The notes: generated from the letters alone by a model not told the origin. 55,287 bases of DNA from Limisphaerales bacterium (GCA_046595315.1 JBKJOZ010000377.1:1-55287); one strand, 5' to 3'. Positions 6,031 to 51,830 are shown, counted from the stretch's first letter. Numbers and translations: made by a program.

Positions 6031-6121
6031 TATCTCGCCGATTCGCGCCGTTTTCGGTTCACCTTACGTTTCCTTGATACAATGCTCGCCCTGTTGTTAC
6101 ACTTTTGGCACCTTCAACTGG

Positions 6122-6985: not shown

Positions 6986-6987
6986 GC

Positions 6988-9275: not shown

Positions 9276-9281
9276 ATACCA

Positions 9282-10604: not shown

Positions 10605-10625
10605 CCAGCCGATGCACCTATTTCG

Positions 10626-12821: not shown

Positions 12822-12824
12822 TCT

Positions 12825-14003: not shown

Positions 14004-14006
14004 GCC

Positions 14007-15503: not shown

Positions 15504-15510
15504 TGTTCCG

Positions 15511-16653: not shown

Positions 16654-16669
16654 CGATTCGTCCTACTGC

Positions 16670-19374: not shown

Positions 19375-19480
19375 GTACAAACTACCTGTCCAATGAGAAA
19401 AATCTGATAGGAGATAGTATTTAAGACTATAACCAATTGAGAATTTGGAGCAACATTTTTGTGAGCGGAACCCGATGACC

Positions 19481-21153: not shown

Positions 21154-21166
21154 CGAGCGTAATTCA

Positions 21167-23217: not shown

Positions 23218-23288
23218 GCGTGAAAGTTATTAAAAAATTGTTTCAAAGGAAATATTCGTTCGGCCAATGGAAAAAATGATGAGATCGC

Positions 23289-24452: not shown

Positions 24453-24486
24453 CAGTTGTTTGCCGCGCCGTTCATTCGAGCGTCAA

Positions 24487-25929: not shown

Positions 25930-25938
25930 TGCGGTTAT

Positions 25939-30463: not shown

Positions 30464-30515
30464 CTCTCGCCGTTTCCAATTGCCATTCCATCGCAGTTAA
30501 AATTGGAAAAGTTTT

Positions 30516-36434: not shown

Positions 36435-37634
36435 ATGAAATTGCTTTTTGTTCACGAACGATTCGGCGCTCTGGCGGGCGCGGAAGCCAATGCCCACATC
36501 ACCGCAACGGAATTGAAGCGTCGCGGCCATAGCATCGGAATTCTTCATGGCCCAGCGACCGGCAAGGGCGAGGCCGCCTGGTTGCAAACTTTTTCCAAAC
36601 GTTTTTCCCTCGCAGCGAAAGGCAATGGGGCGCGCGTTCATGCGGCGCTGGAATTTTTTCAGCCGGATCTTGTTTACGTTCACAAAATGGCCGATCTTGA
36701 GGTGATTGCCTCGCTGGTTGCGGCCAAAGTTCCCGTCGTGCGCATGGTTCATGATCACGACATCTACTGCATGCGCAGTTACAAATATCATTATCTCACT
36801 CGCAAAATTTGCACCCGCGCGGCCGGACCCTTTTGTGTTTTCCCATGCGGCAGTTTTATAACGCGCAATCATGAAAGCGGCCTTCCGATAAAATTCGTAA
36901 GCTATCAGGAGAAGAAAAAAGAAATTTTTTTAAACCAACAATTTCAGCGCATGATCGTGGTGACGCAATACATGAAAGAGGAATTGCTGCGTAATGGATT
37001 TTCCGACGACAAAATCGAAATTCACGCGCCGGTTCCCCGCATGGGCGACCCAGATTTGCGCAGTAGTTTTAGCGAACGGAATTTAATTGTTTACGCCGGA
37101 CAAATCATTCGAGGAAAGGGTGTCGATATCTTACTCGAATCGCTCGCGCGGATGACGGTGCCTTTTGAATGCATTATTCTCGGCGACGGCAGCCACCGGC
37201 CTTACTGCGAAAAATTATGCAAAAAACTTGGTCTCAACGACCGCGTTCGTTTCATGGGATTTGTTCCCCAGGAAGAACTTAAAAATTTTTATCGCGAATG
37301 CACCGTGATGGCCATTAGCTCCGTTTGGCCTGAGCCATTCGCCACCATCGGCATGGAAGCGATGCGCTACGGAATTCCAGTGGTTGCTTTCGATGCAGGT
37401 GGCATCAAGGACTGGCTCCATGATGGTCAAAACGGTTTTCTCGTTCCCTGGATGGATCGCGACCGATACGCCGCACGAATCGAACAGCTTTTGAGAAACA
37501 AAGCACTCGCACGCGAAATGGGCGAACACGGTCATCGCGTTGTCGATGAACAATTCAGTTTTTCTCAATATATCCTCGACCTCGAAAACACCTTTCAAAA
37601 AGTGGTGGATGAATCGCGCCTGGTGGCGGCGTAA
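36435..37634 (+). CDS. Glycosyltransferase family 4
   Basis: 399 aa starting MKLLFVHERFGALAGAE. The C-terminal motif reads VMAISSVWPEPFATIGMEAMRYGIPVVAFDAGGIKDWL. Confidence 0.85.
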   Translation: MKLLFVHERFGALAGAEANAHITATELKRRGHSIGILHGPATGKGEAAWLQTFSKRFSLAAKGNGARVHAALEFFQPDLVYVHKMADLEVIASLVAAKVPVVRMVHDHDIYCMRSYKYHYLTRKICTRAAGPFCVFPCGSFITRNHESGLPIKFVSYQEKKKEIFLNQQFQRMIVVTQYMKEELLRNGFSDDKIEIHAPVPRMGDPDLRSSFSERNLIVYAGQIIRGKGVDILLESLARMTVPFECIILGDGSHRPYCEKLCKKLGLNDRVRFMGFVPQEELKNFYRECTVMAISSVWPEPFATIGMEAMRYGIPVVAFDAGGIKDWLHDGQNGFLVPWMDRDRYAARIEQLLRNKALAREMGEHGHRVVDEQFSFSQYILDLENTFQKVVDESRLVAA

Positions 37635-37771: not shown

Positions 37772-38413
37772 TTGAAAAAAAACAGACCACAATTTATCGC
37801 CATCGTCGGCGGCAGCGGCTCAGGAAAAACCTGGCTTGCCGACCGGCTCGGAAAATCATTTGGTAAAAAAGTCGCGCGCATTTCCCTCGATGATTTTTAT
37901 CGGGACCGCTCCCATCTCTCCGTCAAACAACGGAACCAAATCAACTTCGATCATCCCCGGGCAATTGATTGGAAAAATGTGGAGCGTGTGCTCAATGATT
38001 TTGCCGCAGGCCGCGCCGTGCGCACACCAAAATACAATTTTACGACTCACGCGCGCGAAGAAAAATCAATTTCAATGAAACCCAAGCCGCTCATCATCAT
38101 GGACGGACTTTGGCTCTTGCGCCGCCCGGTTCTGAGACGTCTTTTTTCTTGCCGCATCTTCGTCGATTGCCCGGGTTCAATATGTCTGCGCCGACGTCTG
38201 GAGCGAGACCTCGCTGAACGCGGCCGTGACGCTTCCGCTGTGCGAAAACAATTTCTCAAACATGTCCTGCCCATGCAGGAACGGTTCGTTGCCTCACAAC
38301 TGCGCTGGGCCAATGTCGTGATCAAACAACCGAGCGAGAATCAAATCAGCCAACTGACCGAACAATTAAAAACAATTTTGAAAACAAATAATTATGAGCG
38401 AACAGCAAATTAA
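37772..38413 (+). CDS. udk: Uridine kinase
   Basis: 213 aa with a TTG start. It has the P-loop IAIVGGSGSGKTWLA and is collinear with E. coli Udk (FYRDRSHLSVKQRNQINFDHPRAIDW, IIMDGLWLL, IFVDCPGSICLRRRLERDLAERGR). Confidence 0.85.
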   Translation: MKKNRPQFIAIVGGSGSGKTWLADRLGKSFGKKVARISLDDFYRDRSHLSVKQRNQINFDHPRAIDWKNVERVLNDFAAGRAVRTPKYNFTTHAREEKSISMKPKPLIIMDGLWLLRRPVLRRLFSCRIFVDCPGSICLRRRLERDLAERGRDASAVRKQFLKHVLPMQERFVASQLRWANVVIKQPSENQISQLTEQLKTILKTNNYERTAN

Positions 38414-39122
38414 CGCATTGCTCGTGAAACGTTTTCTTCAAACGCAAACTGTTTGGGGCCGGCAGCGGCTTCGTTTGGCCGTACACTGGAAACAATTTTC
38501 CTGGCGCGTCGTGGTTTCGTCCGCCCTCTTCCTCAAGCGGACTTTTGATGTTGTCGCGAGTTTTGTTTTCCTGGTGGTTTTCTCGCCGCTATTTCTGCTC
38601 ATCTCGGCGCTGATAAAACTGGAAGATGGCGGCCCGGTTTTCTTTGGGCAAACCCGGATTGGGAAATTTGGTTCCAAGTTCAAAATGTGGAAGTTTCGTT
38701 CCATGTGCATTGATGCCGAGGCTCGCATGAAGGATTTGCTTGCCAAAAACCAGCACAAGGATGGAGTAACCTTCAAAATTAAAGACGATCCGCGCGTTAC
38801 CAAAGTGGGTAAATGGCTTCGCAAATTTTCCCTCGATGAATTACCCCAATTTTTCAACGTCTTCATTGGCAATATGTCGCTGGTTGGCCCACGTCCGCCG
38901 GTGCCGCGCGAGGTCGCGCTCTACACCTTATCGGATCGACGTCGCCTCGCGGCACTTCCTGGAATTACCTGCTTCTGGCAAATCGGCGGTCGCAGCGAAA
39001 TTGATTTTTCTGGGCAAGTGCAGCTCGATGTTCGTTACATCGAGAGCCAAAGTTTTTGGTTGGATATTAAAATTTTAGCCAAAACCGTTCCAGCGGTTTT
39101 GTTCAGCAAAGGGGCATATTAA
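38394..39122 (+). CDS. Small monotopic phosphoglycosyl transferase (PglC/WcaJ-C-terminal type bacterial sugar transferase)
   Basis: 242 aa with a re-entrant helix carrying the Ser-Pro break (FVFLVVFSPLFLLISAL). It has GPVFFGQTRIGKFGSKFKMWKFRSM, the catalytic DE in SLDELPQFFNVFIGNMSLVGPRP, and LPGITCFWQIGGR. It overlaps udk by 20 nt. Confidence 0.9.
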   Translation: MSEQQINALLVKRFLQTQTVWGRQRLRLAVHWKQFSWRVVVSSALFLKRTFDVVASFVFLVVFSPLFLLISALIKLEDGGPVFFGQTRIGKFGSKFKMWKFRSMCIDAEARMKDLLAKNQHKDGVTFKIKDDPRVTKVGKWLRKFSLDELPQFFNVFIGNMSLVGPRPPVPREVALYTLSDRRRLAALPGITCFWQIGGRSEIDFSGQVQLDVRYIESQSFWLDIKILAKTVPAVLFSKGAY

Positions 39123-40417
39123 TGAAAGCTGTCCTTATTTGTCCTGCGGAGCGTGCGGAAGTTAGCGCACTCGAAGAATTTACGCCTTTGGTAAATCTTT
39201 CCATTCTGGGCAATCCCTTCATCCATCACTGGCTTGAATATCTCGCGGTCTGCGGGATTAAAAATGTGACCGTTCTCGCGGCAGATCGTCCCGAGCAAAT
39301 TCGCGCCGAAGTGGGCGACGGTTCACGCTGGGGAGTGCAAGTAGAAATTATTCCCGAATCTCACGAGCTCACTCTTGAAGAAGCACGCCAAAAATTGGGC
39401 GGCTCTGACGACATTATTTTGATCGACCACTTGCCGGGGTTGCCCACCGAAAAACTTTTTGCGAGTTATGTCGCTTTTTATTCTACCGTTCACAGGTGGA
39501 TCGAGAAAAATTCTCACCTAATGCAAATCGGTTTAAAAGAAATTCGTCCTGGCATCTGGGCTGGACTACACAGTCAAATTTCTCCGCGTGCGACACTGAC
39601 TGCGCCTTGCTGGATCGGTGAAAATGTTTTGATCAACGCAGACGCCGAGGTCGGCCCAATGACGATTTTAGAACGTGGCGTGGTTGTCGAAAGCGGCGCA
39701 ACAATCACCCATGCGTGGATCGGCAAAGAAACTTTTGTCGGCAACTTTACTCAGGTGAATAACTCCCTCGCCTTCGGAAACACGTTGGTAAATTTCATGA
39801 ACGCCTCCGTCGTGATAATCACCGATCCATTTTTGCTGTGCGCTTTGCAAGACCGGGAAATTTCTGTGAGTGCCGGAAATTTGTTTGGACGATGCGTAGC
39901 CCTCATCGTTCTGGCCTTAACCTCCCCGTTCGCCCTCGTGACAATGCTGAAAGCCAGATTCTTGGGTCACCGCACTTTTCGTCAGCGCCGAGCTATCGCA
40001 TCGCATTCGACCCCCCAACAATATCCAACGTTTATTTATTACGAATTTTCTTCGGCAAACGGATGGTGGAAACGCTGGCCGCAGTTATGGAGCATCGTGT
40101 GTGGCGAATTCACTTGGGTCGGCAACCGTCCGCTCACAACTTTTCAGGCCGGACAATTAGCCAATGAATTTGAGCGGCTCTGGCTCGCGGCGCCGATTGG
40201 ATTAATTTCCAAGGGTGATTCAGAAGGTTGCTCTGATTTGTCTTCCGACGAAGCCCATGCTCACGCCAGCTTCTATGCGGCACAAGCCAACTGGCGTTTA
40301 GATCTGATGATTCTTTTTCGCACCGTCAAACACTTGGCCGGGCGGAAAAAACCGGCCTCCGTGCAAAACGATTCAGCCACACTGAAAACGCGCCGTTTCA
40401 CCTTGCTGGCGCGTTAG
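39122..40417 (+). CDS. Fusion protein: degenerate NTP-transferase-like domain + left-handed beta-helix (hexapeptide) + degenerate sugar-transferase (pseudo-PGT) domain
   Basis: 431 aa; the ATG overlaps the PGT stop (TAATG). The N-terminus keeps the nucleotidyl-transferase layout (NLSILGNPFIHHWLEYLAVCGIKNVTVL..GDGSRWGV) but lacks the GxGxR loop. Hexapeptide repeats span about aa 150-235. The C-terminus has PGT-like blocks (LALTSPFALV, WPQLWSIVCGEFTWVGNRPL, AAPIGLIS, NWRLDLMILFRTV) with KR in place of the catalytic DE. Confidence 0.6.
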   Translation: MKAVLICPAERAEVSALEEFTPLVNLSILGNPFIHHWLEYLAVCGIKNVTVLAADRPEQIRAEVGDGSRWGVQVEIIPESHELTLEEARQKLGGSDDIILIDHLPGLPTEKLFASYVAFYSTVHRWIEKNSHLMQIGLKEIRPGIWAGLHSQISPRATLTAPCWIGENVLINADAEVGPMTILERGVVVESGATITHAWIGKETFVGNFTQVNNSLAFGNTLVNFMNASVVIITDPFLLCALQDREISVSAGNLFGRCVALIVLALTSPFALVTMLKARFLGHRTFRQRRAIASHSTPQQYPTFIYYEFSSANGWWKRWPQLWSIVCGEFTWVGNRPLTTFQAGQLANEFERLWLAAPIGLISKGDSEGCSDLSSDEAHAHASFYAAQANWRLDLMILFRTVKHLAGRKKPASVQNDSATLKTRRFTLLAR

Positions 40418-40607: not shown

Positions 40608-40910
40608 ATGAAAGTTCAAATTTGCGGAGACACATTAAGCATCACCGGTATGAAAGAATTAGGCGCGTCCAACGCTAATTCGTTTCGCGACCACGTTCGT
40701 GCAGCGCTGACCGAAGCAAACAAAATTATCGAGATCGATCTTTCCCAAACCATGTTCGTGGACAGCTGCGGACTGGGGGCGTTGATTTCGCTTCATAAAG
40801 TTGCCTGCACGCGAAATGGGCAAGTGCGCCTGCTCAATCCCACTCCGCCCGTCCAGCAGATTCTGGAACTCACCCGGATGCATCGCATTTTTGAAATCGT
40901 AAAACGCTGA
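40608..40910 (+). CDS. STAS-domain anti-sigma-factor-antagonist-like protein (SpoIIAA/RsbV/SypA-like)
   Basis: 100 aa. The phospho-acceptor context is conserved (MFVDS53CGLGALISL), followed by LNPTPPVQQILELTRMHRIFEI. Confidence 0.85.
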   Translation: MKVQICGDTLSITGMKELGASNANSFRDHVRAALTEANKIIEIDLSQTMFVDSCGLGALISLHKVACTRNGQVRLLNPTPPVQQILELTRMHRIFEIVKR

Positions 40911-40914
40911 GGAC

Positions 40915-42702
40915 ATGCCGCCCTCCCTCCCAATGCCATCGACCGCACGCCTCGGGTTTTCCATGGCGTGCGAATTGGAAGAAGTCCGCCCGATTGCCAA
41001 AGCCACGCGCGAATTTTTAGCCGCCAAAGGATTATCAGAAAATGAACTCATGGCGTGCGAATTGGTTTTGGTTGAGGCGTGCAACAACGCGGTGCTCTAC
41101 GTGATTCCATCGAGGCAACTCGAGCCAATCGGCGTTGAAATCTTCTGCGACGATTCGAAAATTGAGATCCAGATTCACGACCACACTGCTGGTTTTGAAC
41201 TGCCCGAACAGGTTGATCTGACCGACCTAGAAAGCGAAAGCGGGCGCGGTCTTTTCATCATCCAATCTTTGATGGATGACGTCAGTTACGCTGGGGGATT
41301 TGGGGAAAACACTCTGACGCTTCGCAAAATCCGCCCGCCGCAAAACAAAGAAATCATCTCAGAGAAAACGATTGAAAAACTGAAATTAAAACTGGCCGAG
41401 AACGAACAGATCATTGATGACATGACCGAGGAAATCAGTTCCTGCTACGAAAGTTTGTCTGCCATCTTTAGGAGCGGCGCTGAACTCGGGAAGTCTCACA
41501 ATCTCCAAACTTTCTCGCGATCATTGTGCGACGATTTGCTGAAAATTAATTCTGCTGACTGGTTTTTGCTCCGCATCGCACCGAAGGACGATACTGCGTT
41601 ATCCGTTTTCGTTTCGTCAGATTCCTCGGTTCAACTGCCCAGCATTTCTCCGGTTAATTCGGACGTTCATTCATTTGCGGAGATTAAGGCCGCCACCAGC
41701 CAAAAAGATGTTTGGTTCAATTCGAGAAATCCGCTCCACCCAAATGATCCGCTTCACGCCATGCCAGCGGCGCGCGTTGGATTGGTTCACCCGTTCTATT
41801 TTTCCGAAACTCTCATTGGAACTTTAGCCATTGGCAAAACACGAGCAGAACATCCTTTTACGTCAGCACATCTCAACGTGATCCATACGGTTTCCGATTT
41901 TTTAGCCATGCAGATCGTCAATGCTCGCCTTTACGAGGAACGACTCAATCACGGCTTGGTGACCCGTGAATTGGAAATTGCACGCGAAATTCAACGCGCT
42001 TTGCTCCCGAAAAAATTGCCGCGATTGCCCGGCTTTGCTCTCGCCGGTTTTTGCGAAAGTGCAAGACATGTGGGTGGAGATTTTTACGACGCCGTTCAAA
42101 TCGATGAACATTCTGCGCTGCTCGTGATCGCTGATGTGATGGGGAAAGGTGTCCCGGCGGCAATGTTCGCCGCGATTTTGCGCAGCATTTTGCGCGGTTC
42201 ACCAGAACTGGTCCGCCAACCCGCCGCGCTGCTGACCCGCGTGAACGGATTACTTCACGAAGAACTTTCCGATGTCGAAATGTTTATCACGGCACAACTG
42301 GCGTTCATCGACGTGCGTAAGCGTGAACTGATCGTCGCCAATGCCGGACATTGCCCTGCCCTGCTCTTTTGCGAAAACAATCCGGTGCCCAAACAAATTT
42401 CTCCGGAGGGAATGCCGCTCGGTATTTTGCGAAACGCTCTTTTCACCGAGGTGAAGGAACCATTGTTCCACCAATGCCGGGTTGTCTTCTACACCGATGG
42501 AGTTACGGAATCGCGCAACGCCAATGATCAATTTTTTGGGCATCAACGTCTCGTCGATTGGATGAGCGCGACGGCCGGAAAATTTCTAACGGCGGAACAA
42601 TTGAAAGAGTCTCTCGCGGCGGAGTTGAACCTTTTTCGGGATCGTAGCGCCCCGAGTGACGACCAGACATTTTTAATTTTGGCAGAGAATTTTCTAAACT
42701 GA
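40915..42702 (+). CDS. Fused RsbW/SpoIIAB-type serine kinase - GAF-like - SpoIIE/PP2C serine phosphatase
   Basis: 595 aa. The kinase half has ELVLVEACNNAVLY, HDHTAGFE and ESGRGLFIIQSLMD. The GAF-like middle ends LIGTLAIGK...FLAMQIVNARLYEE. The PP2C half has REIQRALLP, GGDFYD, IADVMGKGVPAAMF, FYTDGVTES and DDQTFLIL. Confidence 0.85.
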   Translation: MPPSLPMPSTARLGFSMACELEEVRPIAKATREFLAAKGLSENELMACELVLVEACNNAVLYVIPSRQLEPIGVEIFCDDSKIEIQIHDHTAGFELPEQVDLTDLESESGRGLFIIQSLMDDVSYAGGFGENTLTLRKIRPPQNKEIISEKTIEKLKLKLAENEQIIDDMTEEISSCYESLSAIFRSGAELGKSHNLQTFSRSLCDDLLKINSADWFLLRIAPKDDTALSVFVSSDSSVQLPSISPVNSDVHSFAEIKAATSQKDVWFNSRNPLHPNDPLHAMPAARVGLVHPFYFSETLIGTLAIGKTRAEHPFTSAHLNVIHTVSDFLAMQIVNARLYEERLNHGLVTRELEIAREIQRALLPKKLPRLPGFALAGFCESARHVGGDFYDAVQIDEHSALLVIADVMGKGVPAAMFAAILRSILRGSPELVRQPAALLTRVNGLLHEELSDVEMFITAQLAFIDVRKRELIVANAGHCPALLFCENNPVPKQISPEGMPLGILRNALFTEVKEPLFHQCRVVFYTDGVTESRNANDQFFGHQRLVDWMSATAGKFLTAEQLKESLAAELNLFRDRSAPSDDQTFLILAENFLN

Positions 42703-42703
42703 T

Positions 42704-43060
42704 ATGTCCAGAAAAATATTAATCATCGATGACAAGCCGTTTATGGTGCGACTGATTCAGCACCACTTGGAGCGCGCGGGTTATGAATTGATCAAGGCGC
42801 GAAATCCACAGGAAGCGGCCGACGCCATCGCCCTGCAATCTCCTGAACTCGTCTTGTTGGATGAATCAGGTGCCAATCAAATCACGCTCGGCGATTTCAA
42901 AGCAAAAGAACCGGCTCATCGCTTGCCGGTGATTCGCATGACCGACATGCCACAGACTCTCGATGAAAACCACCCCGGCAACGAAGTCGTTTTAACCAGA
43001 CCGTTCAGCCCGACTCACTTGGTCGCGGAAGTAAAACGGTTAGTGCGCGAAACCAAATAA
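42704..43060 (+). CDS. Stand-alone receiver (REC) domain protein, atypical
   Basis: 118 aa with the acidic pocket ILIIDDK, phospho-acceptor LVLLDES and Thr in VIRMTD. The conserved Lys position reads Arg (LTRPFSP) and the post-Asp 'MP..dG' turn is absent. Confidence 0.75.
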   Translation: MSRKILIIDDKPFMVRLIQHHLERAGYELIKARNPQEAADAIALQSPELVLLDESGANQITLGDFKAKEPAHRLPVIRMTDMPQTLDENHPGNEVVLTRPFSPTHLVAEVKRLVRETK

Positions 43061-43065
43061 ATAAA

Positions 43066-44259
43066 ATGAAATCTGTTCTCCCTATTTTTATCATGATCGA
43101 CGCCTGCGGTTGGGAAATCGTGAAGCGCGATCCTTTTCTCAACTCGATTGCGCCGGAACGGAAAAAGCTCGGCTCCGTTTTCGGTTACAGCTCGACTTGC
43201 GTGCCCTCCATTCTCTCCGGGCGCTGGCCCGTCGAACATCGCAATTGGTGCTACTTTGTTTACGACCCAAAAAATTCTCCGTTCAAATTTCTTAAGCCGT
43301 TACGCTGGTTGCCCTCGGCCCTCACCAGTCGTCGTATTTTCCGGCGCTGGCTCACGAAGCTCGTTCGCCGCCACCTTGGCTTCGAAGGCTATTTTGATCT
43401 CTACAACATTCCGTTCAAACACATCACGCTTTACGACTTCAGTGAAAAGAAAAGCCCACTCAAGCCCAAGGGAATGAATCGTGGCTCAAATATTTTTGAT
43501 TTTCTGGGCGAGAACAAAATTCCTTATTTCGTGAGCAACCCCGACAAAACGGAGCCGGAAAATTTTGAAAATCTCCTCACCACAATCAAAGGCGAGAAAA
43601 TTGATTTCGCATTTTCTTACTGGCCCGGACTCGACGGACTGCTGCACAGCGTCGGCAATCAATCGCCCGAGGTTCCAAAACGCCTGCGTCATTATGAACA
43701 GTGGATCGAAAAAGTGATGGCGACGGCGCGCGAACATTACGACGAAGTGAAGCTCTACGTTTTCAGCGATCATGGGATGGCCAATTGTGATGAGTTAATC
43801 GATTTGAAAGCCAAGATCGATGCGCTTGATGTGAAAATGGAAAAGGATTACGCCGTGGTTTACGACTCCACCATGGCACGCTTTTGGTTCTTCAACAAAA
43901 ACGCTCGCGAGAAAATTTCCCGTTGCCTGCAAGGTGTTCCAGAAGGCCGGATCCTGCCTGATTCCGAACTGGAAGAAATGCGCGCTCTTTTTCCAGATCG
44001 CTATTTTGGGGAATTAATTTTCCTCGTAAAAGAGGGCGTTTTGATTGTGCCAAGTCACATGGGCGAACGCCCCATTCGCGCCATGCATGGCTATCATCCT
44101 TCGGACAAACACAGTTACGCCGCGCTGTTCACGAACCAGACAGAAATTCCCGACGACATCAATGCCATCCCCGATATTTATAAATTGATGACGCAGGAGG
44201 CTGAACAGGCGCGCATCGAAAACAAAAAACCATCGGCGGTTCATGCCGCCGCAATTTAA
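43066..44259 (+). CDS. Alkaline-phosphatase-superfamily type I phosphodiesterase/nucleotide pyrophosphatase-like enzyme (cytoplasmic)
   Basis: 397 aa with no signal peptide or TM. It has the metal/nucleophile blocks FIMIDACGWE and GYSSTCVPSILSGRWPVEH, plus GLDGLLHSVG, VFSDHGM and AMHGYH. Confidence 0.7.
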   Translation: MKSVLPIFIMIDACGWEIVKRDPFLNSIAPERKKLGSVFGYSSTCVPSILSGRWPVEHRNWCYFVYDPKNSPFKFLKPLRWLPSALTSRRIFRRWLTKLVRRHLGFEGYFDLYNIPFKHITLYDFSEKKSPLKPKGMNRGSNIFDFLGENKIPYFVSNPDKTEPENFENLLTTIKGEKIDFAFSYWPGLDGLLHSVGNQSPEVPKRLRHYEQWIEKVMATAREHYDEVKLYVFSDHGMANCDELIDLKAKIDALDVKMEKDYAVVYDSTMARFWFFNKNAREKISRCLQGVPEGRILPDSELEEMRALFPDRYFGELIFLVKEGVLIVPSHMGERPIRAMHGYHPSDKHSYAALFTNQTEIPDDINAIPDIYKLMTQEAEQARIENKKPSAVHAAAI

Positions 44260-44271
44260 CCCAAAATCAAG

Positions 44272-46956
44272 ATGCCTACCTTGACTGCTTCAACCACTTT
44301 AGTTCGCTCCGAAAGTTTTCCACGAACGAAAAGAAAATCTCCCGTTGATGTTGGCTTGCAACAATGGTTCGAGGCCAAAGCGTCTGAATTTCCAAAAGCA
44401 GTCGCGGTATCCTTTCCGGAAAATTCCAAACAACAGGAAATTAGCTATGGCGAATTAAATTTTCGCGCCAATCAACTCGCGCGACACCTGCGCAAAGCGG
44501 GCGTCGGGCCGGACGTTGTCGTCGGCATTTGCGCCGAGCGTTCGTTTGAATTGATCGTTGCCGCCCTCGCCGTCATCAAAGCGGGCGGCGCGTACCTTCC
44601 CCTCGATCCCACTTATCCAAAGGAACGTTTGTCGTTCATGCTCGAAGACACCAGTGCGCCGATAATTTTAACACAAGAAAAGCTCGCCCCGACTTTGCCG
44701 AAGAACGATGCACATTTGCTTTGTCTCGATACCGATTGGAAAGCCATCGCCAAAGAGCCGGGCGAAAATCTCGACTGCATCGCCAGCCACGATCATCTGG
44801 CTTATCTGATTTATACATCCGGATCGACCGGAAAACCGAAAGGCGTCGCCATGCGCCACGGCCCGCTGGTCAATCTGTTATTGTGGCAATTCCAGAACTG
44901 GAGCGCGCGCCCGGACGCCAAAACGTTGCAGTTTGCTTCGCTCAATTTTGACGTTTCGTTTCAGGAAATTTTTTCGACGCTCGGCTCCGGCGGAACGCTC
45001 GTCCTGGTCTCCGAAGAATTACGCCGAGATTCCAATCGGCTCCTCAATTTTTTGGATGAACAGCAAGTTGAAAGAATTTTTTTACCGTTTGTCGCGTTGA
45101 AACATTTGGCGGATGCCTCGGAGCGCGAACAAATTTTCCCACGACAACTGCGCGAAGTCATCACGGCGGGAGAACAATTGCAGATCACGCCGCAAGTGAC
45201 GCGATTTTTCAGCAAACTGCCTCGCTGTACGTTGCACAATCAGTATGGACCTTCGGAAACCCACGTCGTCACCGCGTTTGATTTGAAAGGTTCGCCGCAA
45301 AACTGGCCGGCGCTTCCGTCCATAGGGAAAGCCATTTTCAACACGCAAATTTTTATTTTGGACGAACAGCTTCGACCTGTAGAACCCGGCACGCCGGGCG
45401 AGTTGTTCATCGGCGGTGATTGTCTGGCGCGTGGATATTTGAATCGCCCCGAGTTGACCGCCGAAAAATTTATCGCCAGTCCATTCGCGCAAAATTCCCG
45501 GCTGTATAAAACGGGAGATCTCGCTCGTCAGTTGCCGGACGGAAATTTTGAGTTTCTCGGACGCATCGATCATCAAGTTAAAATTCGCGGATTCCGGATC
45601 GAGCTCGGGGAAATTGAAACCGTTTTGAGCCAGCATCCGGCCATTCGCGAAGTCGTTGTCGTCGCCAAAGAAAGCGCCAACAGCGACAAAAAACTGGTCG
45701 CCTACATCGTGGCCAATCCTGGGGCCGCAGCCACTTCGTCGGAGCTAAGAAAATTTCTCACCAACAAAATTCCGAGCTACGCAGTTCCCTCAATTTTCAT
45801 GCAGCTCCCGGCATTTCCGTTGACGCCAAATGGCAAGGTGGATCGGCGCGCTTTGCCCGAGCCTGTGGTCGAGGAGGATTTTTCAGCGCAAATCAAACCG
45901 CCGCAAAGCCCGTTAGAAATGCAATTGCAACTCGTGTTCGAAAAATTTCTCAATCGTCGGCCAATTGGAATTGACGTGAGCTTTTTCGAACTGGGCGGCG
46001 ATTCCCTGCAAGCTCTGAAGTTGATCGTCGAAATCGAGCGGTTCACGGGGAAGAAATTGCCGCTCGAAATTCTTTTTCAAAATTCCACGATCGAATCGCT
46101 GGCGACATACATCCAAAATTCTTCCGGCGACTTCAAATTTTCCTCCATGGTTCCGCTCCAGCCCTTAGGAAATCGGCCGCCGCTATTTTTCATCCACACC
46201 ACGCCCGGCGATGTGCTGGCTTACGGCGCATTGATTTATCATCTAGGCCTGGATCAGCCGTGCTACGGATTTCAGTCACTCGGTTTTGGCCGCAAGGAAG
46301 AAAGTCACACGCGCGTCGATCAAATGGCAGCGTATTACATCAAGCAACTCCGGACGATCCAACCGCATGGCCCCTATTATCTCAGCGGCTGGTGCTACGG
46401 TGGAATTGTCGCTGTCGAAATGGGGCATCAACTTTTGGCCGCCGGTGAAGAAGTGGCTTTGATGGCGTTGATTGAAACGCCGGCTCCGGCTCCGGCTCCG
46501 GCCAAATCCAATTTTCGATTTTATGTGCGGCGCATCGGTTGCGTGCTGAAAATGAGTCCGCGGCAATGGCGGATTTATCTCGCTGAAAAAATTAAATATT
46601 ACCGGGGCGTTAAACGAGAAAACGAAATGCGTTTTCGTCGGGTAGATCAATCCGAAAACCCAGATAAAATCGACGAGATCAATCAGCATCTCGAACAACT
46701 CGAGCATGTTTATCACACCAATCTCGACGCGCTGAATTCTTACAACGTTCGTCCATATCCGCGCAAAGTGGTGTTATTCAACGCGCAAGATCAAGATCCT
46801 GCACAGGTCATCGATCCGCTCTACGGCTGGCCGAGTCTCGCGTCGCAAATCGAAGTCCACAGCGTGTCTGGAAATCACGACACAATTTTAATGGAGCCAC
46901 ACGTCCGGCAACTCGCAGAAAAATTCTCCGACTGTCTGGTGCGCTCCCAACATTAA
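44272..46956 (+). CDS. NRPS-like single-module enzyme: adenylation - thiolation (PCP) - thioesterase, no condensation domain
   Basis: 894 aa. A-domain cores are LAYLIYTSGSTGKPKGV, FDVSFQEIF, NQYGPSE, GELFIGGDCLARGY, YKTGDLA, GRIDHQVKIRGFRIELGEIE and PNGKVDR. The PCP motif is FFELGGDS578LQALKL. The TE has PLFFIHTTPGD, GWC708YGG and GNHDTIL. Confidence 0.9.
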   Translation: MPTLTASTTLVRSESFPRTKRKSPVDVGLQQWFEAKASEFPKAVAVSFPENSKQQEISYGELNFRANQLARHLRKAGVGPDVVVGICAERSFELIVAALAVIKAGGAYLPLDPTYPKERLSFMLEDTSAPIILTQEKLAPTLPKNDAHLLCLDTDWKAIAKEPGENLDCIASHDHLAYLIYTSGSTGKPKGVAMRHGPLVNLLLWQFQNWSARPDAKTLQFASLNFDVSFQEIFSTLGSGGTLVLVSEELRRDSNRLLNFLDEQQVERIFLPFVALKHLADASEREQIFPRQLREVITAGEQLQITPQVTRFFSKLPRCTLHNQYGPSETHVVTAFDLKGSPQNWPALPSIGKAIFNTQIFILDEQLRPVEPGTPGELFIGGDCLARGYLNRPELTAEKFIASPFAQNSRLYKTGDLARQLPDGNFEFLGRIDHQVKIRGFRIELGEIETVLSQHPAIREVVVVAKESANSDKKLVAYIVANPGAAATSSELRKFLTNKIPSYAVPSIFMQLPAFPLTPNGKVDRRALPEPVVEEDFSAQIKPPQSPLEMQLQLVFEKFLNRRPIGIDVSFFELGGDSLQALKLIVEIERFTGKKLPLEILFQNSTIESLATYIQNSSGDFKFSSMVPLQPLGNRPPLFFIHTTPGDVLAYGALIYHLGLDQPCYGFQSLGFGRKEESHTRVDQMAAYYIKQLRTIQPHGPYYLSGWCYGGIVAVEMGHQLLAAGEEVALMALIETPAPAPAPAKSNFRFYVRRIGCVLKMSPRQWRIYLAEKIKYYRGVKRENEMRFRRVDQSENPDKIDEINQHLEQLEHVYHTNLDALNSYNVRPYPRKVVLFNAQDQDPAQVIDPLYGWPSLASQIEVHSVSGNHDTILMEPHVRQLAEKFSDCLVRSQH
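46480..46503 (+). repeat. Hexanucleotide tandem repeat (CCGGCT)x3 + CCGGCC inside the TE domain
   Basis: Read directly from the sequence. It is in frame and encodes PAPAPAPA. Confidence 0.9.
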
Positions 46957-46976: not shown

Positions 46977-48530
46977 ATGACCAACCAAGATGTCACTCGA
47001 AATATTTGGCGGAATTCCATTTCCAATTACGTTTGCACCGCGATCCGGATGGTCGTCGGCCTTCTGATGTTTCGGATGCTTTATCAACATCTGTCACGTG
47101 AAGAATTTGGTTTTTGGGCGCTGCTTTGGAGCGTGTTTGGTTACGGCATCCTGCTCGATTTCGGATTCGGTTTTACAGCCGAGAAAAGAGTGGCAGAGCT
47201 TTCGGTTCATCAAGAATGGGATCGCTTGAGCCGCATTCTCAGCACCATCTTTTTTGTCTATCTTGCCATCGGAATTTTGATGGTCTTGACGATCCTTTTA
47301 ACTTCCAGTCACGTGATTGATTTTTTTAACGTCACCTCAGGGAACCACGAACGTTTTCGCAAAATTTTAGTCTGGTTCTTTGCGGGAATGGCAATTGCAT
47401 TTCCACTCGGAATTTTTCCAGAAATCTTGATCGGCCAGCAAAGGATTTGCCTGACCAATATTATTTTTTCCACCGGCGTCGTCGCCAATTTTGTTTTTGT
47501 CGCGTTGGCCGTCCATTTTCACTGGAAGCTGCAAACCATTTTCATCATTGCGCTGCTCAGCGGCATTCTCCCGTGCGTGGTTTCGGCAATGTTCGCCTTT
47601 CAATATTTACCCAAGGTGAAAATTCGACTGAGCTATTTTTCGTGGGGGACTATTCGTGAGACGATGCAGTTTTCCATTTTTGCTTATATCAGCACGGTCA
47701 GTAACATCATCGTCGCCAAGACAGATCAACTGGTGATTAGCGCAGCCTTGTCCGTATCGGCAGTGGCAGTTTATCAAGTCAGCGCCAAGCTAGCGGAAAC
47801 GTTTGGCGGGTTTACTCAACAATTGCCGAGCACATTTTCTCCTGCGGCGGCGCACATGCACGCCAAGGGAGACAAAGCATTTCTCAAAAATCTCCTCATC
47901 GACGGCACTCGCTTCACGCTAATGATTGGCACGCCGCTTTATTTTATCTGCGCGTTTTACATGGAGGGCATTCTTTCCATTTTGACCGGTGACAAAATCC
48001 CGAGCCACGAAACGTTTTGGATCGGGCAGGTTCTTCTCTTCTGGTGCTACATGGTTTTGGTCACGCAAAGTGTATCCAAACGCATTTTCATGATGTGCGG
48101 ACACGAACGCATTTTGATGAAATTAAGCTGCGGTGAAGCGCTGCTGAATCTCGCGTTGAGCATCGGATTGGTTCTTTATTTCAAAAATGTTTTGTGCGTC
48201 GCCCTCGGCTCACTGATCTCCACGATGATCTTTGGTTGGTTTTTCGTCTGGCCCATGGCGGCACGCGAAGCGGAAATGTCCTGCTGGCAACTGGCGCGCA
48301 CTGTCTTGATTCCAATCTGGCTAGCGTCGCTGCCGTTGTTGGGCTTTCTCTTGCTCGGTCGATTTGTCCCGTGGTTTGATTTTCGCACCAGCACGCTTCT
48401 GTTTTTTGCAGAATGCGCAGTGGCAGTTTTGGTCGCTGCCATCAGTTTTTGGCACGCAGCCCTTAAACGAAACGAACGCGAACATCTCACCGCGCGATTT
48501 GGAAAATATTTCAGGATTACCCCGGTATGA
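46977..48530 (+). CDS. wzx: Wzx-type oligosaccharide/polysaccharide flippase (MOP superfamily)
   Basis: 517 aa with about 12-14 TM segments. The N-terminal pattern NSISNYVCTAIRMVVGLLMFRMLYQHLSREEFGFWALLWSVFGYGILLDFGFG is typical of polysaccharide biosynthesis (Wzx) proteins. Confidence 0.75.
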   Translation: MTNQDVTRNIWRNSISNYVCTAIRMVVGLLMFRMLYQHLSREEFGFWALLWSVFGYGILLDFGFGFTAEKRVAELSVHQEWDRLSRILSTIFFVYLAIGILMVLTILLTSSHVIDFFNVTSGNHERFRKILVWFFAGMAIAFPLGIFPEILIGQQRICLTNIIFSTGVVANFVFVALAVHFHWKLQTIFIIALLSGILPCVVSAMFAFQYLPKVKIRLSYFSWGTIRETMQFSIFAYISTVSNIIVAKTDQLVISAALSVSAVAVYQVSAKLAETFGGFTQQLPSTFSPAAAHMHAKGDKAFLKNLLIDGTRFTLMIGTPLYFICAFYMEGILSILTGDKIPSHETFWIGQVLLFWCYMVLVTQSVSKRIFMMCGHERILMKLSCGEALLNLALSIGLVLYFKNVLCVALGSLISTMIFGWFFVWPMAAREAEMSCWQLARTVLIPIWLASLPLLGFLLLGRFVPWFDFRTSTLLFFAECAVAVLVAAISFWHAALKRNEREHLTARFGKYFRITPV

Positions 48531-49444
48531 ACGATCCACTTGTCAGCATCATTTTGCGTTCCTACAACGAAGCCTGGGCTTTGGGCGCCACTCTTGCTGC
48601 CTTGCAAGCGCAGGAGTATAAAAACTGGGAACTGATCGTAATCGACTCCGGCTCCACCGACGGCTCCGCTGATTTAATTCGCAAAGCCAACCCGCGTCAT
48701 TTTCATCAAATCAAGCCATCTGAATACAATCCCAGCCGCGTGATGAACTGGGGAATGCGCCTGGCGAAAGGTGATTATGGAATTTTTCTCAACGCCGACG
48801 CCCTTCCCCAAAACGAAAATTGGCTCCGCCCGCTGGTTGAGCCACTCCTGAATCCTAAAACGGCCGCCGTTTTCGGGAGGCAGATTCCGCGCCTGGATTG
48901 CCAGGCCGTTTACGCCTGCGATTACGAACGCTGTTTTGGCCCGCATCGCGAGTCAGCAAATTGGGATCATTTTTTCAGCATGGTGAGCAGCGGACTTCGT
49001 AAAGACATTTGGGCGCAACGCGGTTTCCTTGAAAAACTTCAATACGCCGAAGACGACGAATATACGCGTTGGTGCAAAACCGAAAATTATCGGGTGGTTT
49101 ATTGCCCCGAATCGGTCGTCATGCACTCGCACAATTACACTCCGGCGCAATCCTACAAACGTAGCTTTGGCGATGCGCGCGCGCTGGCCGCTTCGTGGCA
49201 GAATGATCCAAATTATTTTAATTTTTTCCGAACCGTTTTGCTCGGCTCGATCAGCGACCTTCGGCATGACTTTCGATTTTGCGCGCAGCACCGCCGCTTG
49301 CCGGAATTTCCACACGCTGCACAAATCCGATGGCATCAACGTCGCGGAAAACTCGATGGATTTCGCGCCGGTTGGAAAGATTATCGAATAAACGACACGA
49401 CGTGCGTGCCACAAACGTTGTCGGCTGTTTTATCTGGAAAATGA
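48527..49444 (+). CDS. Glycosyltransferase family 2
   Basis: 305 aa; the start overlaps the wzx stop (ATGA). It has VSIILRSYNEAWALGATLAALQAQEYKNWELIVIDSGSTDGS and FLNADALP. Confidence 0.85.
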   Translation: MNDPLVSIILRSYNEAWALGATLAALQAQEYKNWELIVIDSGSTDGSADLIRKANPRHFHQIKPSEYNPSRVMNWGMRLAKGDYGIFLNADALPQNENWLRPLVEPLLNPKTAAVFGRQIPRLDCQAVYACDYERCFGPHRESANWDHFFSMVSSGLRKDIWAQRGFLEKLQYAEDDEYTRWCKTENYRVVYCPESVVMHSHNYTPAQSYKRSFGDARALAASWQNDPNYFNFFRTVLLGSISDLRHDFRFCAQHRRLPEFPHAAQIRWHQRRGKLDGFRAGWKDYRINDTTCVPQTLSAVLSGK

Positions 49445-50583
49445 ATTCCCGTTTCACAATTGATGGAAGTGACGTGCTGGAAAATCATTTAACGCAGACC
49501 TGCCAGCGCGTTGCCACTGGCGTCCGAAAAATTATCCCCAATGGCGAGCTGGAGGCACTCCTGCTTGGTGGCGGTTATGGTCGAGGCCAAGGCGGCGTTC
49601 TCAAAACCGATTCCGGCGATCAACCTTACAACGATCTCGAGTTTTACGTCTGTCTGCAAGGCAGCGAACTTTTGAATCGAAGAAAATATCGGCGCGCCAT
49701 CCATCATCTCGCCGAGAAACTTTCCCCTGAGGCTGGGCTTGAAGTGGAATTTAAAATTACCTCGCTCGATAAGTTGCGGAAAAATCCGCCGACCATGTTC
49801 AGCTACGATTTAGCCTGCGGACATCGCTCGTTTTTGGGCGACGATAATTCGTTTGCTAAAAATTCGGCACCGAACGCGGAAAGCATCCCGCAATGCGAGG
49901 CGACGCGGCTCCTGATGAATCGTTGCTCTGGTTTGCTCTTCGCCAAAGAGCATTTGCAACGCAAACCGTTTACCGAACAAGACGCTGATTTCGTCGGGCG
50001 CAACCACGCCAAGGCGCAACTCGCGTTCGGCGATGTTATCCTGACGGCGCACGGCCAATATCATTGGGATTGTCGCGAGCGAAATCGGCGGCTTGCCCAT
50101 TTTTCGTCTCAGGCACTGCCGTGGATAAACGAAGTCCGCCGTCATCACGACATCGGGTTGCAATTCAAACTTTATCCCCAGCGCAGCCGCGATTCCATGG
50201 ATGTTTTGTGCGAGCGCCAACGCGCCTTGACGGACCTCGGTTTGAAAATATGGCTTTGGCTAGAGAGCACGCGGCTTAAAAGAACGTTCACCTCCGCCCG
50301 TAATTACGCTTTCGATACTTGCGACAAATGTCCCGAAACCAATTCGCTGCGTAATTTGTTGATCAATGCTCGAACATTCGGCATTGCCATTTTGTTTGAA
50401 AGCAATCCGCTCCGCTATCCGCGCCAACGATTGCTTCATGCTTTGGCGCTGTTGCTGTGGGAACCAACCGCCTTGACCAAGCCAAGTTTATGGCAACGGC
50501 TCCAGACTGAGCTGAGCACGAACGCAGTGCAGTTTCCCGAGTTGGTCAAAGCCTACGAATTTTTGTGGAAACAATTCAACTAA
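49441..50583 (+). CDS. Hypothetical protein, weak nucleotidyltransferase-fold-like N-terminus
   Basis: 380 aa from ATG 49441, which overlaps the GT2 stop (ATGA). The stretch ALLLGGGYGRGQGGV...PYNDLEFYVCL loosely resembles the G[SG]-x(n)-DxD/E pattern of pol-beta-type NTases. The rest is helical-looking and unassigned. Confidence 0.35.
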   Translation: MNSRFTIDGSDVLENHLTQTCQRVATGVRKIIPNGELEALLLGGGYGRGQGGVLKTDSGDQPYNDLEFYVCLQGSELLNRRKYRRAIHHLAEKLSPEAGLEVEFKITSLDKLRKNPPTMFSYDLACGHRSFLGDDNSFAKNSAPNAESIPQCEATRLLMNRCSGLLFAKEHLQRKPFTEQDADFVGRNHAKAQLAFGDVILTAHGQYHWDCRERNRRLAHFSSQALPWINEVRRHHDIGLQFKLYPQRSRDSMDVLCERQRALTDLGLKIWLWLESTRLKRTFTSARNYAFDTCDKCPETNSLRNLLINARTFGIAILFESNPLRYPRQRLLHALALLLWEPTALTKPSLWQRLQTELSTNAVQFPELVKAYEFLWKQFN

Positions 50584-50588
50584 CGCCC

Positions 50589-51830
50589 ATGAAAATTCTT
50601 GTTTTTTATCCTTACATTCCTTGGCCGCTAGATCGCGGAACCTACCAGCGCACTTTCAACCTCCTGCGCGAACTTGCGAAAACGCACGAAGTTGATTTGC
50701 TCGCACTCGCTTCAAATGGAGAGGGAGTCGAACACAAAGCGCTTTTCGAAACATTCTGTCGGCGTGTGGAATTCGTTCCATTCCAACATCCGCAATGGGA
50801 AAAACTTTTTCCCACACGCCTGCTTAACCCGCTTCCCACCAGCATCGCGCACTGGACAATGCCGCATGTGCAACAGGCTGTGGACAAGATGCTCGCCAGC
50901 GAAAAATACGATGCGGTTCACGCGTGCGACATCGTCCTCGCCCAATATTTCATGCGTCACCATCGCGCCATGCCACTAGTTATCGACCGAAGCCGCGTCG
51001 ATCTCCAATTCCAATTGATGGAACATCAACGAATGAATTTTTCCGCGCGCACTAAACTTCTCCGGTGCGAAGGTTATTTAAAAATGTGGATCTACGAACG
51101 GGCTGTGGCGCGCCGCGCCGCGCTGGAAATTGTTTGCGGGCCGGACGACGAAATATTTTTACGCAAATATGTCAGCCGGAAGATGCCGGTCTCCGTCCTC
51201 GTCAACGGCGTCGATTTAGATTTTTTCCGCCGGGAAAATTCCGATGCGCCACGAGCGCAAAAGCCAACGCTCATTTTTTGTGGCGCGATGGATTACAACC
51301 CGAACATCGACGCGTTACGCTGGTATTTTCAGGAAATTCATGAGTCGTTGCGCAAACAAGTTCCTGAGCTGGAAGTATTGGTGGTCGGCAAACAACCGAC
51401 CGCCGAAGTGCTGGCTTACGGACAAAAGCCCAGTGTGACTGTAACGGGCAGCGTGCCGGATGTGCGCCCGTTTTATCGGCGCGCCTGGTTGCAAATCGTG
51501 CCGCTTCGCATCGGTGGCGGAACGCGTTTAAAAATCGTTGAATCGATGGCGATGGGAACACCCATCATCTCCACCACGATCGGCGCTCAAGGACTCAACC
51601 TGCGTCATGACCATGACATTCTCTTGGCCGATCGCGCTGAAGATTTCGTGCAACAAACTGCGCGTGCTCTGCGCGAGACGGTGCTGCGGAATCATTTGGA
51701 GAAAGCCGGATTGGAAACGGTTCACGCGCGCTTTTCCTGGACAAAACTGGGCGGAGAACTGGGCGGGCTTTACAGCAAAAATGCGCGTGAAAAGAACGGC
51801 AAAGCTCACTTCACGCCAGCTTGCGCATGA
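50589..51830 (+). CDS. Glycosyltransferase family 4, second 'stp1'/TIGR03087-like paralogue
   Basis: 413 aa from ATG 50589. It has MKILVFYPYIPWPLDRGTYQRTFNLLRELAKTHEVDLLAL, FCGAMDYNPNIDALRWYF and VPLRIGGGTRLKIVESMAMGTPIISTTIGAQGL. Confidence 0.85.
   Translation: MKILVFYPYIPWPLDRGTYQRTFNLLRELAKTHEVDLLALASNGEGVEHKALFETFCRRVEFVPFQHPQWEKLFPTRLLNPLPTSIAHWTMPHVQQAVDKMLASEKYDAVHACDIVLAQYFMRHHRAMPLVIDRSRVDLQFQLMEHQRMNFSARTKLLRCEGYLKMWIYERAVARRAALEIVCGPDDEIFLRKYVSRKMPVSVLVNGVDLDFFRRENSDAPRAQKPTLIFCGAMDYNPNIDALRWYFQEIHESLRKQVPELEVLVVGKQPTAEVLAYGQKPSVTVTGSVPDVRPFYRRAWLQIVPLRIGGGTRLKIVESMAMGTPIISTTIGAQGLNLRHDHDILLADRAEDFVQQTARALRETVLRNHLEKAGLETVHARFSWTKLGGELGGLYSKNAREKNGKAHFTPACA

Follow-up and report, generated by a model that had tools for sequence, protein, structure and literature searches.

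A 55,287-nucleotide stretch of DNA from a Limisphaerales bacterium (GCA_046595315.1, JBKJOZ010000377.1:1-55287), hereafter the window, carries a single nonribosomal peptide synthetase (NRPS)-like gene between a gene for an alkaline phosphatase (AP)-superfamily protein and a gene for a Wzx-like flippase. Its product, here called the A-T-TE enzyme, unites an adenylation (A) domain, a peptidyl carrier domain (T or PCP) and a thioesterase (TE) in one chain. Homologue names and loci place the source organism among the uncultured members of Verrucomicrobiota. The A domain is predicted to load L-proline or a near analogue, the TE has a cysteine nucleophile, and the gene recurs in one variable slot of an exopolysaccharide cassette; together, these features tentatively point to an enzyme that decorates a glycan with an amino acid.

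Domain organization and operon position

The Pfam scan resolves the 894-aa product into AMP-binding (E 5e-80), AMP-binding_C, PP-binding (E 1.6e-14) and Thioesterase (E 9.4e-24) domains (Table 1), and returns no Condensation (PF00668), epimerase or reductase match, in agreement with the initial annotation, which had described one protein with A, PCP and TE domains and no condensation (C), epimerase or reductase domain. The A domain is preceded by just 32 residues, and the protein thus falls short of a complete C-A-T-TE module. The phosphopantetheine attachment site of the carrier domain is Ser578, within FFELGGDSL, a motif kept across the family. The protein is soluble, its hydrophobic stretches being core strands and no other membrane segments being present, and is therefore expected to act at the cytoplasmic face.

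Open reading frame (ORF) coordinates likewise confirm the reported spacing, with 12 nt separating the gene from AP upstream and 20 nt from wzx downstream. The AP gene stops at 44259 and shares one reading frame with the A-T-TE gene, from which it is separated by TAA plus 12 nt, and wzx starts at 46977. Neither the 12-nt nor the 20-nt gap holds a terminator-like site, in a scan whose promoter and terminator counts as a whole lie at background, no higher than in shuffled sequences. Among the larger ORFs of the window, Pfam revealed neither another NRPS or polyketide synthase (PKS) gene nor an ACPS/Sfp-type phosphopantetheinyl transferase (PPTase), and scanning all six frames of the window for MbtH-like or PPTase motifs gave no match; the A-T-TE gene is thus the lone NRPS/PKS gene of the window, which lacks a PPTase gene, as had been noted from the start.

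Adenylation domain and predicted substrate

The A domain passes the model for amino acid adenylation domains (TIGR01733, 443.8 bits vs a cutoff of 317.4), while the 894-aa protein falls far under the cutoffs of the NCBIfam acyl-CoA ligase models and scores 270 bits against a cutoff of 560 with the DltA model TIGR01734. Core motifs A3, A4, A5, A6, A7, A8 and A10 were detected, and the strict patterns for A1, A2 and A9 gave no match. Motif A4 reads FDVS (residues 226-229), as first reported, and its Asp227 corresponds to D235 in GrsA numbering, the contact of the alpha-amino group; Lys522 corresponds to K517. The earlier assignment to the amino-acid-activating type is upheld by these features and can be refined to a proline or proline-like substrate. 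A grouping with aryl-acid or fatty-acyl ligases had been named in the initial annotation as grounds for abandoning its proposed glycan role; the A domain groups with neither. The aryl-keto-acid chemistry of other A-T-TE enzymes was likewise ruled out, given the retained Asp235 and the proline-type pocket.

When the pocket region alone (residues 220-356) was searched against all solved structures, the best match was module 1 of tyrocidine synthetase 2 (TycB; PDB 9bfd_B, E 2.9e-30), followed by the first A domain of gramicidin S synthetase 2 (GrsB1; PDB 8p5o_A, E 7.8e-26), with the third-ranking match dropping to E 3.7e-9. Both leading alignments are gapless and include a shared six-residue insert between positions 278 and 299. 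TycB1 and GrsB1 activate L-Pro in tyrocidine and gramicidin S synthesis, for which the canonical code is DVQLIAHVVK. The code residues of the A-T-TE enzyme (D227, V228, Q231, L276, I297, A299, Q324, V332, V333 and K522) spell DVQLIAQVVK, identical to the proline code at nine of ten positions and unchanged in all 25 related loci with a readable code, although the proteins are merely 54-78% identical. The code also contains the Val236/Gln239 hallmark common to 59 of 71 Pro-activating domains (PMC12283262), and related codes are used by azetidine-2-carboxylate domains (PMC12283262). Altogether, the pocket and code make it quite probable that the A domain loads L-proline or a close imino-acid analogue.

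A thioesterase with a cysteine nucleophile

Overlooked in the initial annotation is the unusual active site of the TE. Its nucleophile motif reads GWC708YGG instead of the usual GxSxG; the position 27 residues further on, which holds the catalytic Asp of type I TEs, is occupied by Glu735 (in LIETPA); and the histidine is His869 (in GNHDTIL). The canonical Ser-His-Asp triad is thus replaced by a Cys/Glu variant, which is kept in the family members examined. Across a 17-sequence TE alignment, the Cys, the His and a family-specific HTTPGD motif are invariant and the Glu nearly so, with one Asp, and the active-site residues and HTTPGD hold at 51-78% identity.

Searched as a profile against solved structures, the TE matches AB3403 of Acinetobacter baumannii best (E 1.8e-34), with the GGWCFGG motif, Asp and His of AB3403 aligning with Cys708, Glu735 and His869; the next full-length matches are Pks13 (E 8.7e-25) and fatty-acid-synthase TEs. 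An AlphaFold model of the domain (pLDDT 92.7) gave the same order in Foldseek, where AB3403 (TMq 0.70) and the Pks13 TE (TMq 0.65) were followed by the EntF and NocB TEs, all with probability 1.0. The putative Cys708-His869-Glu735 triad is assigned by alignment to the solved AB3403 TE, one of three structurally characterised TEs with a cysteine nucleophile, the others being ObiF and SulM (PMC11298585). A search with the TE domain as sole query retrieved mainly fragments of the same family.

A local length polymorphism was also observed in the TE just past strand beta6, where a CCGGCT hexanucleotide repeat directly after Glu735 encodes (Pro-Ala)4 (46474-46500, + strand); a near-identical protein of another assembly (P0001) has (Pro-Ala)3 and the substitution V758L.

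Recurrence of the gene in related genomes

All six homologues that were looked up (54-75% identical) share one neighbourhood. The 5' part of this base locus comprises a family 4 glycosyltransferase (GT4), a uridine kinase, a small phosphoglycosyl transferase (PGT) and a hexapeptide protein, and the remainder runs STAS, (RsbW-like kinase/PP2C, receiver), AP, A-T-TE, Wzx, GT2, (GT4), a protein here termed X, and GT4. When 185,579 species genomes were scanned using the TE alignment, 174 loci were confirmed, 80 of which were retained for a phmmer-based neighbour census. Among these 80, the order STAS-(RsbW/PP2C-REC)-AP-[NRPS-like]-Wzx-GT2-(GT4)-X-GT4 recurs in about 30 Verrucomicrobiota loci; the A-T-TE gene itself lies between AP and Wzx in about 25 loci of that phylum, so that its embedding in a glycan operon, as first reported, extends well beyond the window.

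The NRPS-like gene of the cassette occurs in three forms, namely A-T-TE (~900 aa), C*-A-T-TE (~1,130 aa) and GNAT-C*-A-T-TE (~1,350 aa), in which C* is a condensation-domain remnant that matches positions 192-276 only of the Condensation profile (P0012). The first two forms both carry DVQLIAQVVK. The third combines the same Cys-TE with the code DAEW[IV]GA[IT][TA]K (L024-L034, L122; P0066, P0067), which, apart from its Glu239, agrees with the Arg-type consensus of PMC12283262, and therefore resembles, at the level of the code, one for Arg or another basic amino acid. The GNAT domain fused to it hints that the tethered amino acid is N-acetylated.

In other lineages and phyla, too, the cassette houses related NRPS-like genes that combine a Cys-TE with different amino-acid codes. 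In Desulfobacterota (L035, L037, L042, L047, L050, L053, L058) and in Victivallales of Lentisphaerota (L036, L057), Cys-TE NRPSs stand beside cassette homologues; these proteins are larger, carry DAEWIGTVVK or DGEWIGTVVK, and adjoin AP, STAS, GT2, X and Wzx homologues. The Cys-TE NRPSs of Nostoc, Cloacimonadota and some Lentisphaerota have no cassette genes within 10 kb, and the code of the Nostoc protein, VDWLISLAVK, looks like that of a beta-amino acid.

A variable slot between AP and Wzx

The cassette was also approached from protein X, through a metagenome scan that gave 553 confirmed matches, of which 80 were kept; AP and Wzx were both visible in 22 loci. The slot between them held a GT4 in 17 of the 22, an NRPS-like gene in three and nothing recognisable in two. 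Cassettes with X, STAS, partner-switch proteins, AP, Wzx and GT2 and no NRPS-like gene are common, and some of them adjoin Wzy_C, Poly_export and exosortase EpsH/EpsI genes. The A-T-TE gene is therefore an accessory, swappable occupant of one slot in a widespread exopolysaccharide cassette.

This distribution revises the significance attached to the neighbouring phosphodiesterase gene in the initial annotation: AP is a member of the base cassette and also occurs in many loci devoid of the NRPS-like gene, so the adjacency is not specific. A specific functional coupling of the A-T-TE enzyme with AP was rejected, AP being found with STAS, Wzx, GT2 and X in NRPS-less cassettes. In 13 related loci, an FkbM-like methyltransferase gene separates AP from the NRPS gene; as a partner of the enzyme it was rejected, since it is absent from the window and also occurs in NRPS-less cassettes.

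The surrounding polysaccharide cassette

The genes flanking the A-T-TE gene (Table 1) bring together an initiating PGT, GT2 and GT4 enzymes and Wzx in one operon, and no Wzy gene was found within this operon in the window. Judged by its gene content, the locus is a Wzx-dependent exopolysaccharide cassette under predicted partner-switch control.

Table 1. Features of the cassette and of the A-T-TE gene, in window coordinates.
Feature	Position	Strand	Details	Basis
GT4	36435-37634	+		Pfam/NCBIfam
Uridine kinase	37772-38413	+	equivalog model passed, 195 bits vs 180; kept in related loci	NCBIfam
Small polyprenyl-phosphate glycosylphosphotransferase	38394-39122	+	294.1 bits vs cutoff 295.6	TIGR03025
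NTP-transferase-like/hexapeptide/partial Bac_transf protein	39122-40417	+	431 aa	Pfam
STAS protein	40608-40910	+	partner-switch module	
RsbW-like kinase-GAF-PP2C fusion	40915-42702	+	partner-switch module	
Receiver domain protein	42704-43060	+	partner-switch module	
NPP-type AP-superfamily protein	43066-44259	+	base cassette member	PF01663
A-T-TE gene	44272-46956	+	ATG start, 894 aa	ORF call, translation, Pfam, NCBIfam
Adenylation domain	44368-45837	+	core aa 33-390, C-terminal subdomain aa 447-522	Pfam, NCBIfam
Asp227 codon	44950-44952	+	D235 in GrsA numbering	
Lys522 codon	45835-45837	+	K517 in GrsA numbering	
Peptidyl carrier domain	45937-46113	+	aa 556-614	Pfam PP-binding (PF00550)
Ser578 codon	46003-46005	+	PCP attachment site	
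Type I thioesterase domain	46180-46932	+	aa 637-887	Pfam PF00975
Cys708 codon	46393-46395	+	TE nucleophile motif	
Glu735 codon	46474-46476	+	nucleophile+27	
His869 codon	46876-46878	+	TE histidine	
Wzx-like flippase	46977-48530	+	Polysacc_synt/MatE, ~10 hydrophobic segments	
GT2	48527-49444	+	3' cassette part	
Protein X	49441-50583	+	soluble, nucleotidyltransferase-like fold, 380 aa	
GT4 nearest PEP-CTERM/XrtA stp1 family	50565-51830	+		NCBIfam

The partner-switch module is kept in most related cassettes, with STAS present even where the kinase/phosphatase is missing, and its proteins give weak SiaA/RsbW matches in NCBIfam. The AP protein, a fixed part of the cassette, lacks a signal peptide and membrane segments and is taken to be a cytoplasmic phosphodiesterase or phosphotransferase that may act together with X and the uridine kinase; by eye, its metal-ligand and nucleophile positions are seemingly present (IDACGW, SSTCVPS, LDGLLH, SDHGM). 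The 431-aa protein is a chimera of an N-terminal sugar-nucleotidyltransferase-like segment, a left-handed beta-helix and hydrophobic segments, whose C-terminus matches merely the last 90 positions of the Bac_transf profile and whose reading frame overlaps the stop of the preceding PGT gene by one base (39122).

Protein X, encoded from a start codon that shares bases with the GT2 stop (ATGA), has over 2,000 homologues, every one of them labelled hypothetical, which far outnumber those of the A-T-TE enzyme; it has no Pfam, NCBIfam or PDB sequence match. Its AlphaFold model (pLDDT 92.8) retrieved the ANT(4')/AAD(9) aminoglycoside nucleotidyltransferases and the Hailong HalB nucleotidyltransferase (NTase) in Foldseek (probability ~1, but E only ~1e-3 and TM 0.34/0.46), and an invariant GGGYGRG..NDLE is consistent with the Pol-beta NTase signature; on the strength of this modelled fold, X may nucleotidylate a sugar hydroxyl.

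Several further glycan-related genes lie in the window. Just upstream of the cassette, 27284-33155 (+) encodes a WD40/Big_7 protein (1,059 aa) and a GH9 endoglucanase with CelD_N (879 aa); GH9 also flanks the cassette in four related loci (L005-L008) and GH5 in another (L003), and the flanking GH9 may act on the polymer as a glycanase. A second glycan locus, of the ABC-transporter type, lies at 4870-17920 (+) and comprises Acyl_transf_3, Wzm/Wzt (with the Wzt C-terminal domain), GT4s, an MfnA-like PLP decarboxylase (250 bits vs a cutoff of 299), two proteins without family assignment (339 and 731 aa) and a DltB-like MBOAT (14007-15503) followed by a 380-aa protein without family. A third, Wzy-type glycan locus occupies 17917-27072 (-), with a large phosphoglycosyl transferase, GT4, GT2, an unassigned protein, a further GT2, Wzy_C and GT4.

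Proposed function and alternative explanations

The reading proposed here is that a condensation-free, NRPS-derived module tailors a Wzx-dependent exopolysaccharide by prolyl transfer onto a cytoplasmic glycan intermediate, a proposal that is plausible, with a chance judged slightly short of even. In such a pathway, the A domain would adenylate L-proline or a close imino-acid analogue and load it onto the phosphopantetheine arm of Ser578, as the motifs of both domains predict, and the prolyl thioester would then move from the PCP to Cys708 of the TE. An external nucleophile, most likely a sugar hydroxyl or amino group, would resolve the acyl-enzyme; the acceptor could be a cytoplasmic polyprenyl-linked repeat unit or a nucleotide-sugar precursor from the neighbouring glycosyltransferases, and the decorated unit would be flipped by Wzx. 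The net outcome would be a cationic prolyl substituent on the polymer, serving, by analogy, the same purpose as D-alanylation of teichoic acids. The predicted substrates (Pro, and Arg/Lys-like in sister loci) would all add positive charge, a purpose shared by D-alanylation, by the addition of glycine to lipid A and by lysyl-phosphatidylglycerol.

The individual steps differ in strength. Intermolecular transfer by the TE is considered likely, since hydrolysis would merely return free proline in a futile cycle, which argues for transfer to an external nucleophile; the TE of Pks13 works as an acyltransferase, with trehalose receiving its product (PMC11649247), so there is precedent for acylation of a sugar by a carrier-fused TE. 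No gene that would modify the tethered proline was found in the cassette by Pfam, and a pyrrole-2-carboxylate route through a prolyl-S-PCP dehydrogenase (PltE/RedW-like) was discarded, as the cassette lacks an acyl-CoA-dehydrogenase-like gene. For a glycan intermediate as the acceptor overall, the odds are roughly even, perhaps marginally favourable; this choice follows from a slot otherwise held by a glycosyltransferase, from one TE being combined with several codes, and from recurrence in three phyla.

Several observations weigh against the proposal. We infer both the transfer step, already suggested in the initial annotation as occurring onto a lipid-linked glycan ahead of flipping, and the glycan acceptor from context and logic, and all loci come from uncultured metagenome-assembled genomes or metagenomes. 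ObiF and SulM close rings intramolecularly and AB3403 is uncharacterised (PMC11298585), while large multimodular NRPSs of Nostoc, Cloacimonadota and Lentisphaerota likewise end in members of the Cys-TE clade; given that Cys-TE NRPSs exist apart from the cassette, the Cys-TE alone is no sign of glycan transfer. The adjacency of AP is a property of the slot and no sign of a joint reaction. Position 322 of the code is invariantly Gln instead of the canonical His (H322Q), such that the true substrate may be a proline analogue. Finally, no report of a prolyl-substituted bacterial polysaccharide was found in the literature searched.

Among the alternatives, a free small molecule, such as cyclo(Pro-Pro), a prolyl ester or amide, or a short oligomer formed when the soluble nucleophile recruited by the TE is a second prolyl unit or some other compound, would reduce the operon position to co-regulation. 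Established examples exist both of oligomerising or dimerising TEs and of A-T-TE enzymes that couple two units without a condensation domain (fungal atromentin/terrequinone-type synthetases, the enterobactin and gramicidin S TEs), the same TE clade ends ordinary multimodular NRPSs without nearby glycan genes, and the C remnant in relatives (P0012) shows descent from a regular C-A-T-TE termination module. This explanation is nevertheless considered unlikely, as the gene is repeatedly found within the glycan cassette rather than next to it, in about 30 loci and three phyla, takes a slot otherwise held by a glycosyltransferase, and has around it neither a small-peptide exporter, except Wzx, nor further tailoring genes. 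That the substrate is no imino acid, or that the gene is a decaying, functionless NRPS remnant, is very improbable: the core motifs are intact, the strong pocket matches are solely to solved Pro-activating domains, and the code is invariant at 54-78% identity along with the catalytic residues, a constancy despite divergence that indicates purifying selection and outweighs the departure from the canonical code at position 322 and the lack of MbtH or PPTase genes nearby.

Other possibilities concern the transferase and the acceptor. The module might supply only prolyl-S-PCP, with transfer by another enzyme in trans and the fused TE serving as a proofreading hydrolase; both Dlt and Alm use separate transferases, and candidates exist in the hexapeptide-repeat protein of the cassette, whose left-handed beta-helix is of acyltransferase type, in protein X, and in the DltB-like MBOAT of the window (TIGR04091, 189 bits, cutoff 375), which stands beside a 380-aa protein without assignment. 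A Dlt-like route via this MBOAT was set aside, however: its gene belongs to another glycan locus, of the ABC-transporter type and 30 kb distant, and has no conserved counterpart near the A-T-TE gene, around which no MBOAT was found within 10 kb in eight related loci (L001-L008); the hexapeptide protein and X also occur in NRPS-less cassettes, and the invariant TE residues and HTTPGD motif fit specific catalysis better than clean-up, making transfer in trans decidedly unlikely. A non-glycan envelope acceptor (a lipid head group, lipid A/LPS core or a protein) would make the system an AlmEFG- or MprF-like charge modification, for which carrier-dependent glycine addition to lipid A by AlmEFG is a precedent and to which positively charged Pro and Arg/Lys-like substituents would be suited; with no lipid A or phospholipid acyltransferase family in the cassette, and with the gene set amid PGT, GT and Wzx genes and swapping with a glycosyltransferase, such an acceptor appears improbable.

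Beyond prolyl transfer in the window itself, the swappable occupants of the slot may represent an unrecognised class of NRPS-derived Cys-His-Glu A-T-TE glycan aminoacyltransferases that spans at least three phyla and installs Pro or Arg/Lys-like residues, a generalization offered more cautiously, with the balance tilting somewhat against it. It would include TE-catalysed transfer directly onto lipid-linked repeat units, unlike the mechanism of Dlt and Alm. Were the reading as a glycan aminoacyltransferase correct, it would add to Dlt and Alm a third, mechanistically different way of attaching amino acids to bacterial surface polymers, in which aminoacyl transfer to a sugar would be carried out on the cytoplasmic side by a TE, a domain that usually catalyses release; prolyl and basic aminoacyl decorations of polysaccharides, not found in the literature searched, would be predicted; and the joining of one TE to different A domains within the cassette would amount to a natural modular system for programming exopolysaccharide charge. 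The finding also draws attention to a large, unannotated Verrucomicrobiota exopolysaccharide cassette with partner-switch control, a cytoplasmic NPP-type enzyme and the X family.

Comparison with known systems

The initial annotation had known of no earlier characterisation of the arrangement, a view that persists: in the literature searched, no published description was found, whether of an A-T-TE or NRPS-like gene in a polysaccharide locus or of NRPS and exopolysaccharide genes in Verrucomicrobia. Its analogy to Dlt and Alm stands as a functional likeness and fails as regards the transferase, since the conserved locus has no DltB/DltD or AlmG-type partner. In the Dlt system, DltA and DltC load D-alanine, and transfer proceeds via the MBOAT DltB and DltD outside the membrane, with no thioesterase. 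The common element is an adenylation enzyme with a carrier for cationic aminoacyl decoration of an envelope glycopolymer; these are separate proteins in Dlt, whereas here the domains are fused and joined to a Cys-TE, and the DltA score is under its cutoff. AlmEFG of Vibrio cholerae similarly employs a stand-alone A domain and a carrier to aminoacylate an envelope glycolipid, but its acceptor is lipid A and AlmG belongs to the lipid A acyltransferase family rather than to the alpha/beta-hydrolase TEs, and no AlmG-like lipid A acyltransferase was found among the cassette proteins with Pfam and NCBIfam.

On the biochemical level, the closest relative of the TE, that of AB3403 (ABBFA_003403, PDB 4zxh), belongs to a one-module NRPS and shares the GGWC[YF]GG cysteine nucleophile and the histidine position, yet AB3403 has a complete C domain, an Asp as triad acid, an NRPS cluster around it and an A domain that is not of the proline type; its product is not established (PMC11298585). 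The Pks13 TE is comparable as a carrier-fused type I TE with full-length alignment and a similar fold, and differs in its Ser nucleophile, lipid acyl group and PKS context. TycB1 and GrsB1, the nearest solved relatives of the substrate pocket, carry His322 where Gln322 stands here and belong to multimodular assembly lines with C domains. The A-T-TE order itself is shared with the atromentin and terrequinone synthetases and with RalA (ralfuranone), which activate aryl alpha-keto acids and are without Asp235, in contrast to the present enzyme, which keeps Asp235, passes TIGR01733 and has a Cys in its TE.

A further comparison is one of regulation, which concerns the cassette and not the A-T-TE enzyme. 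Partner-switch control of biofilm polysaccharide operates in the Vibrio fischeri Syp system (SypA/SypE) and in Pseudomonas aeruginosa SiaABC, and the cassette likewise places STAS, an RsbW-like kinase, PP2C and a receiver inside a polysaccharide locus, differing in domain order and fusion. Taken together, these comparisons suggest, by analogy, that the A-T-TE enzyme joins carrier-dependent envelope aminoacylation as a variant that falls outside both Dlt and AlmEFG by membership.

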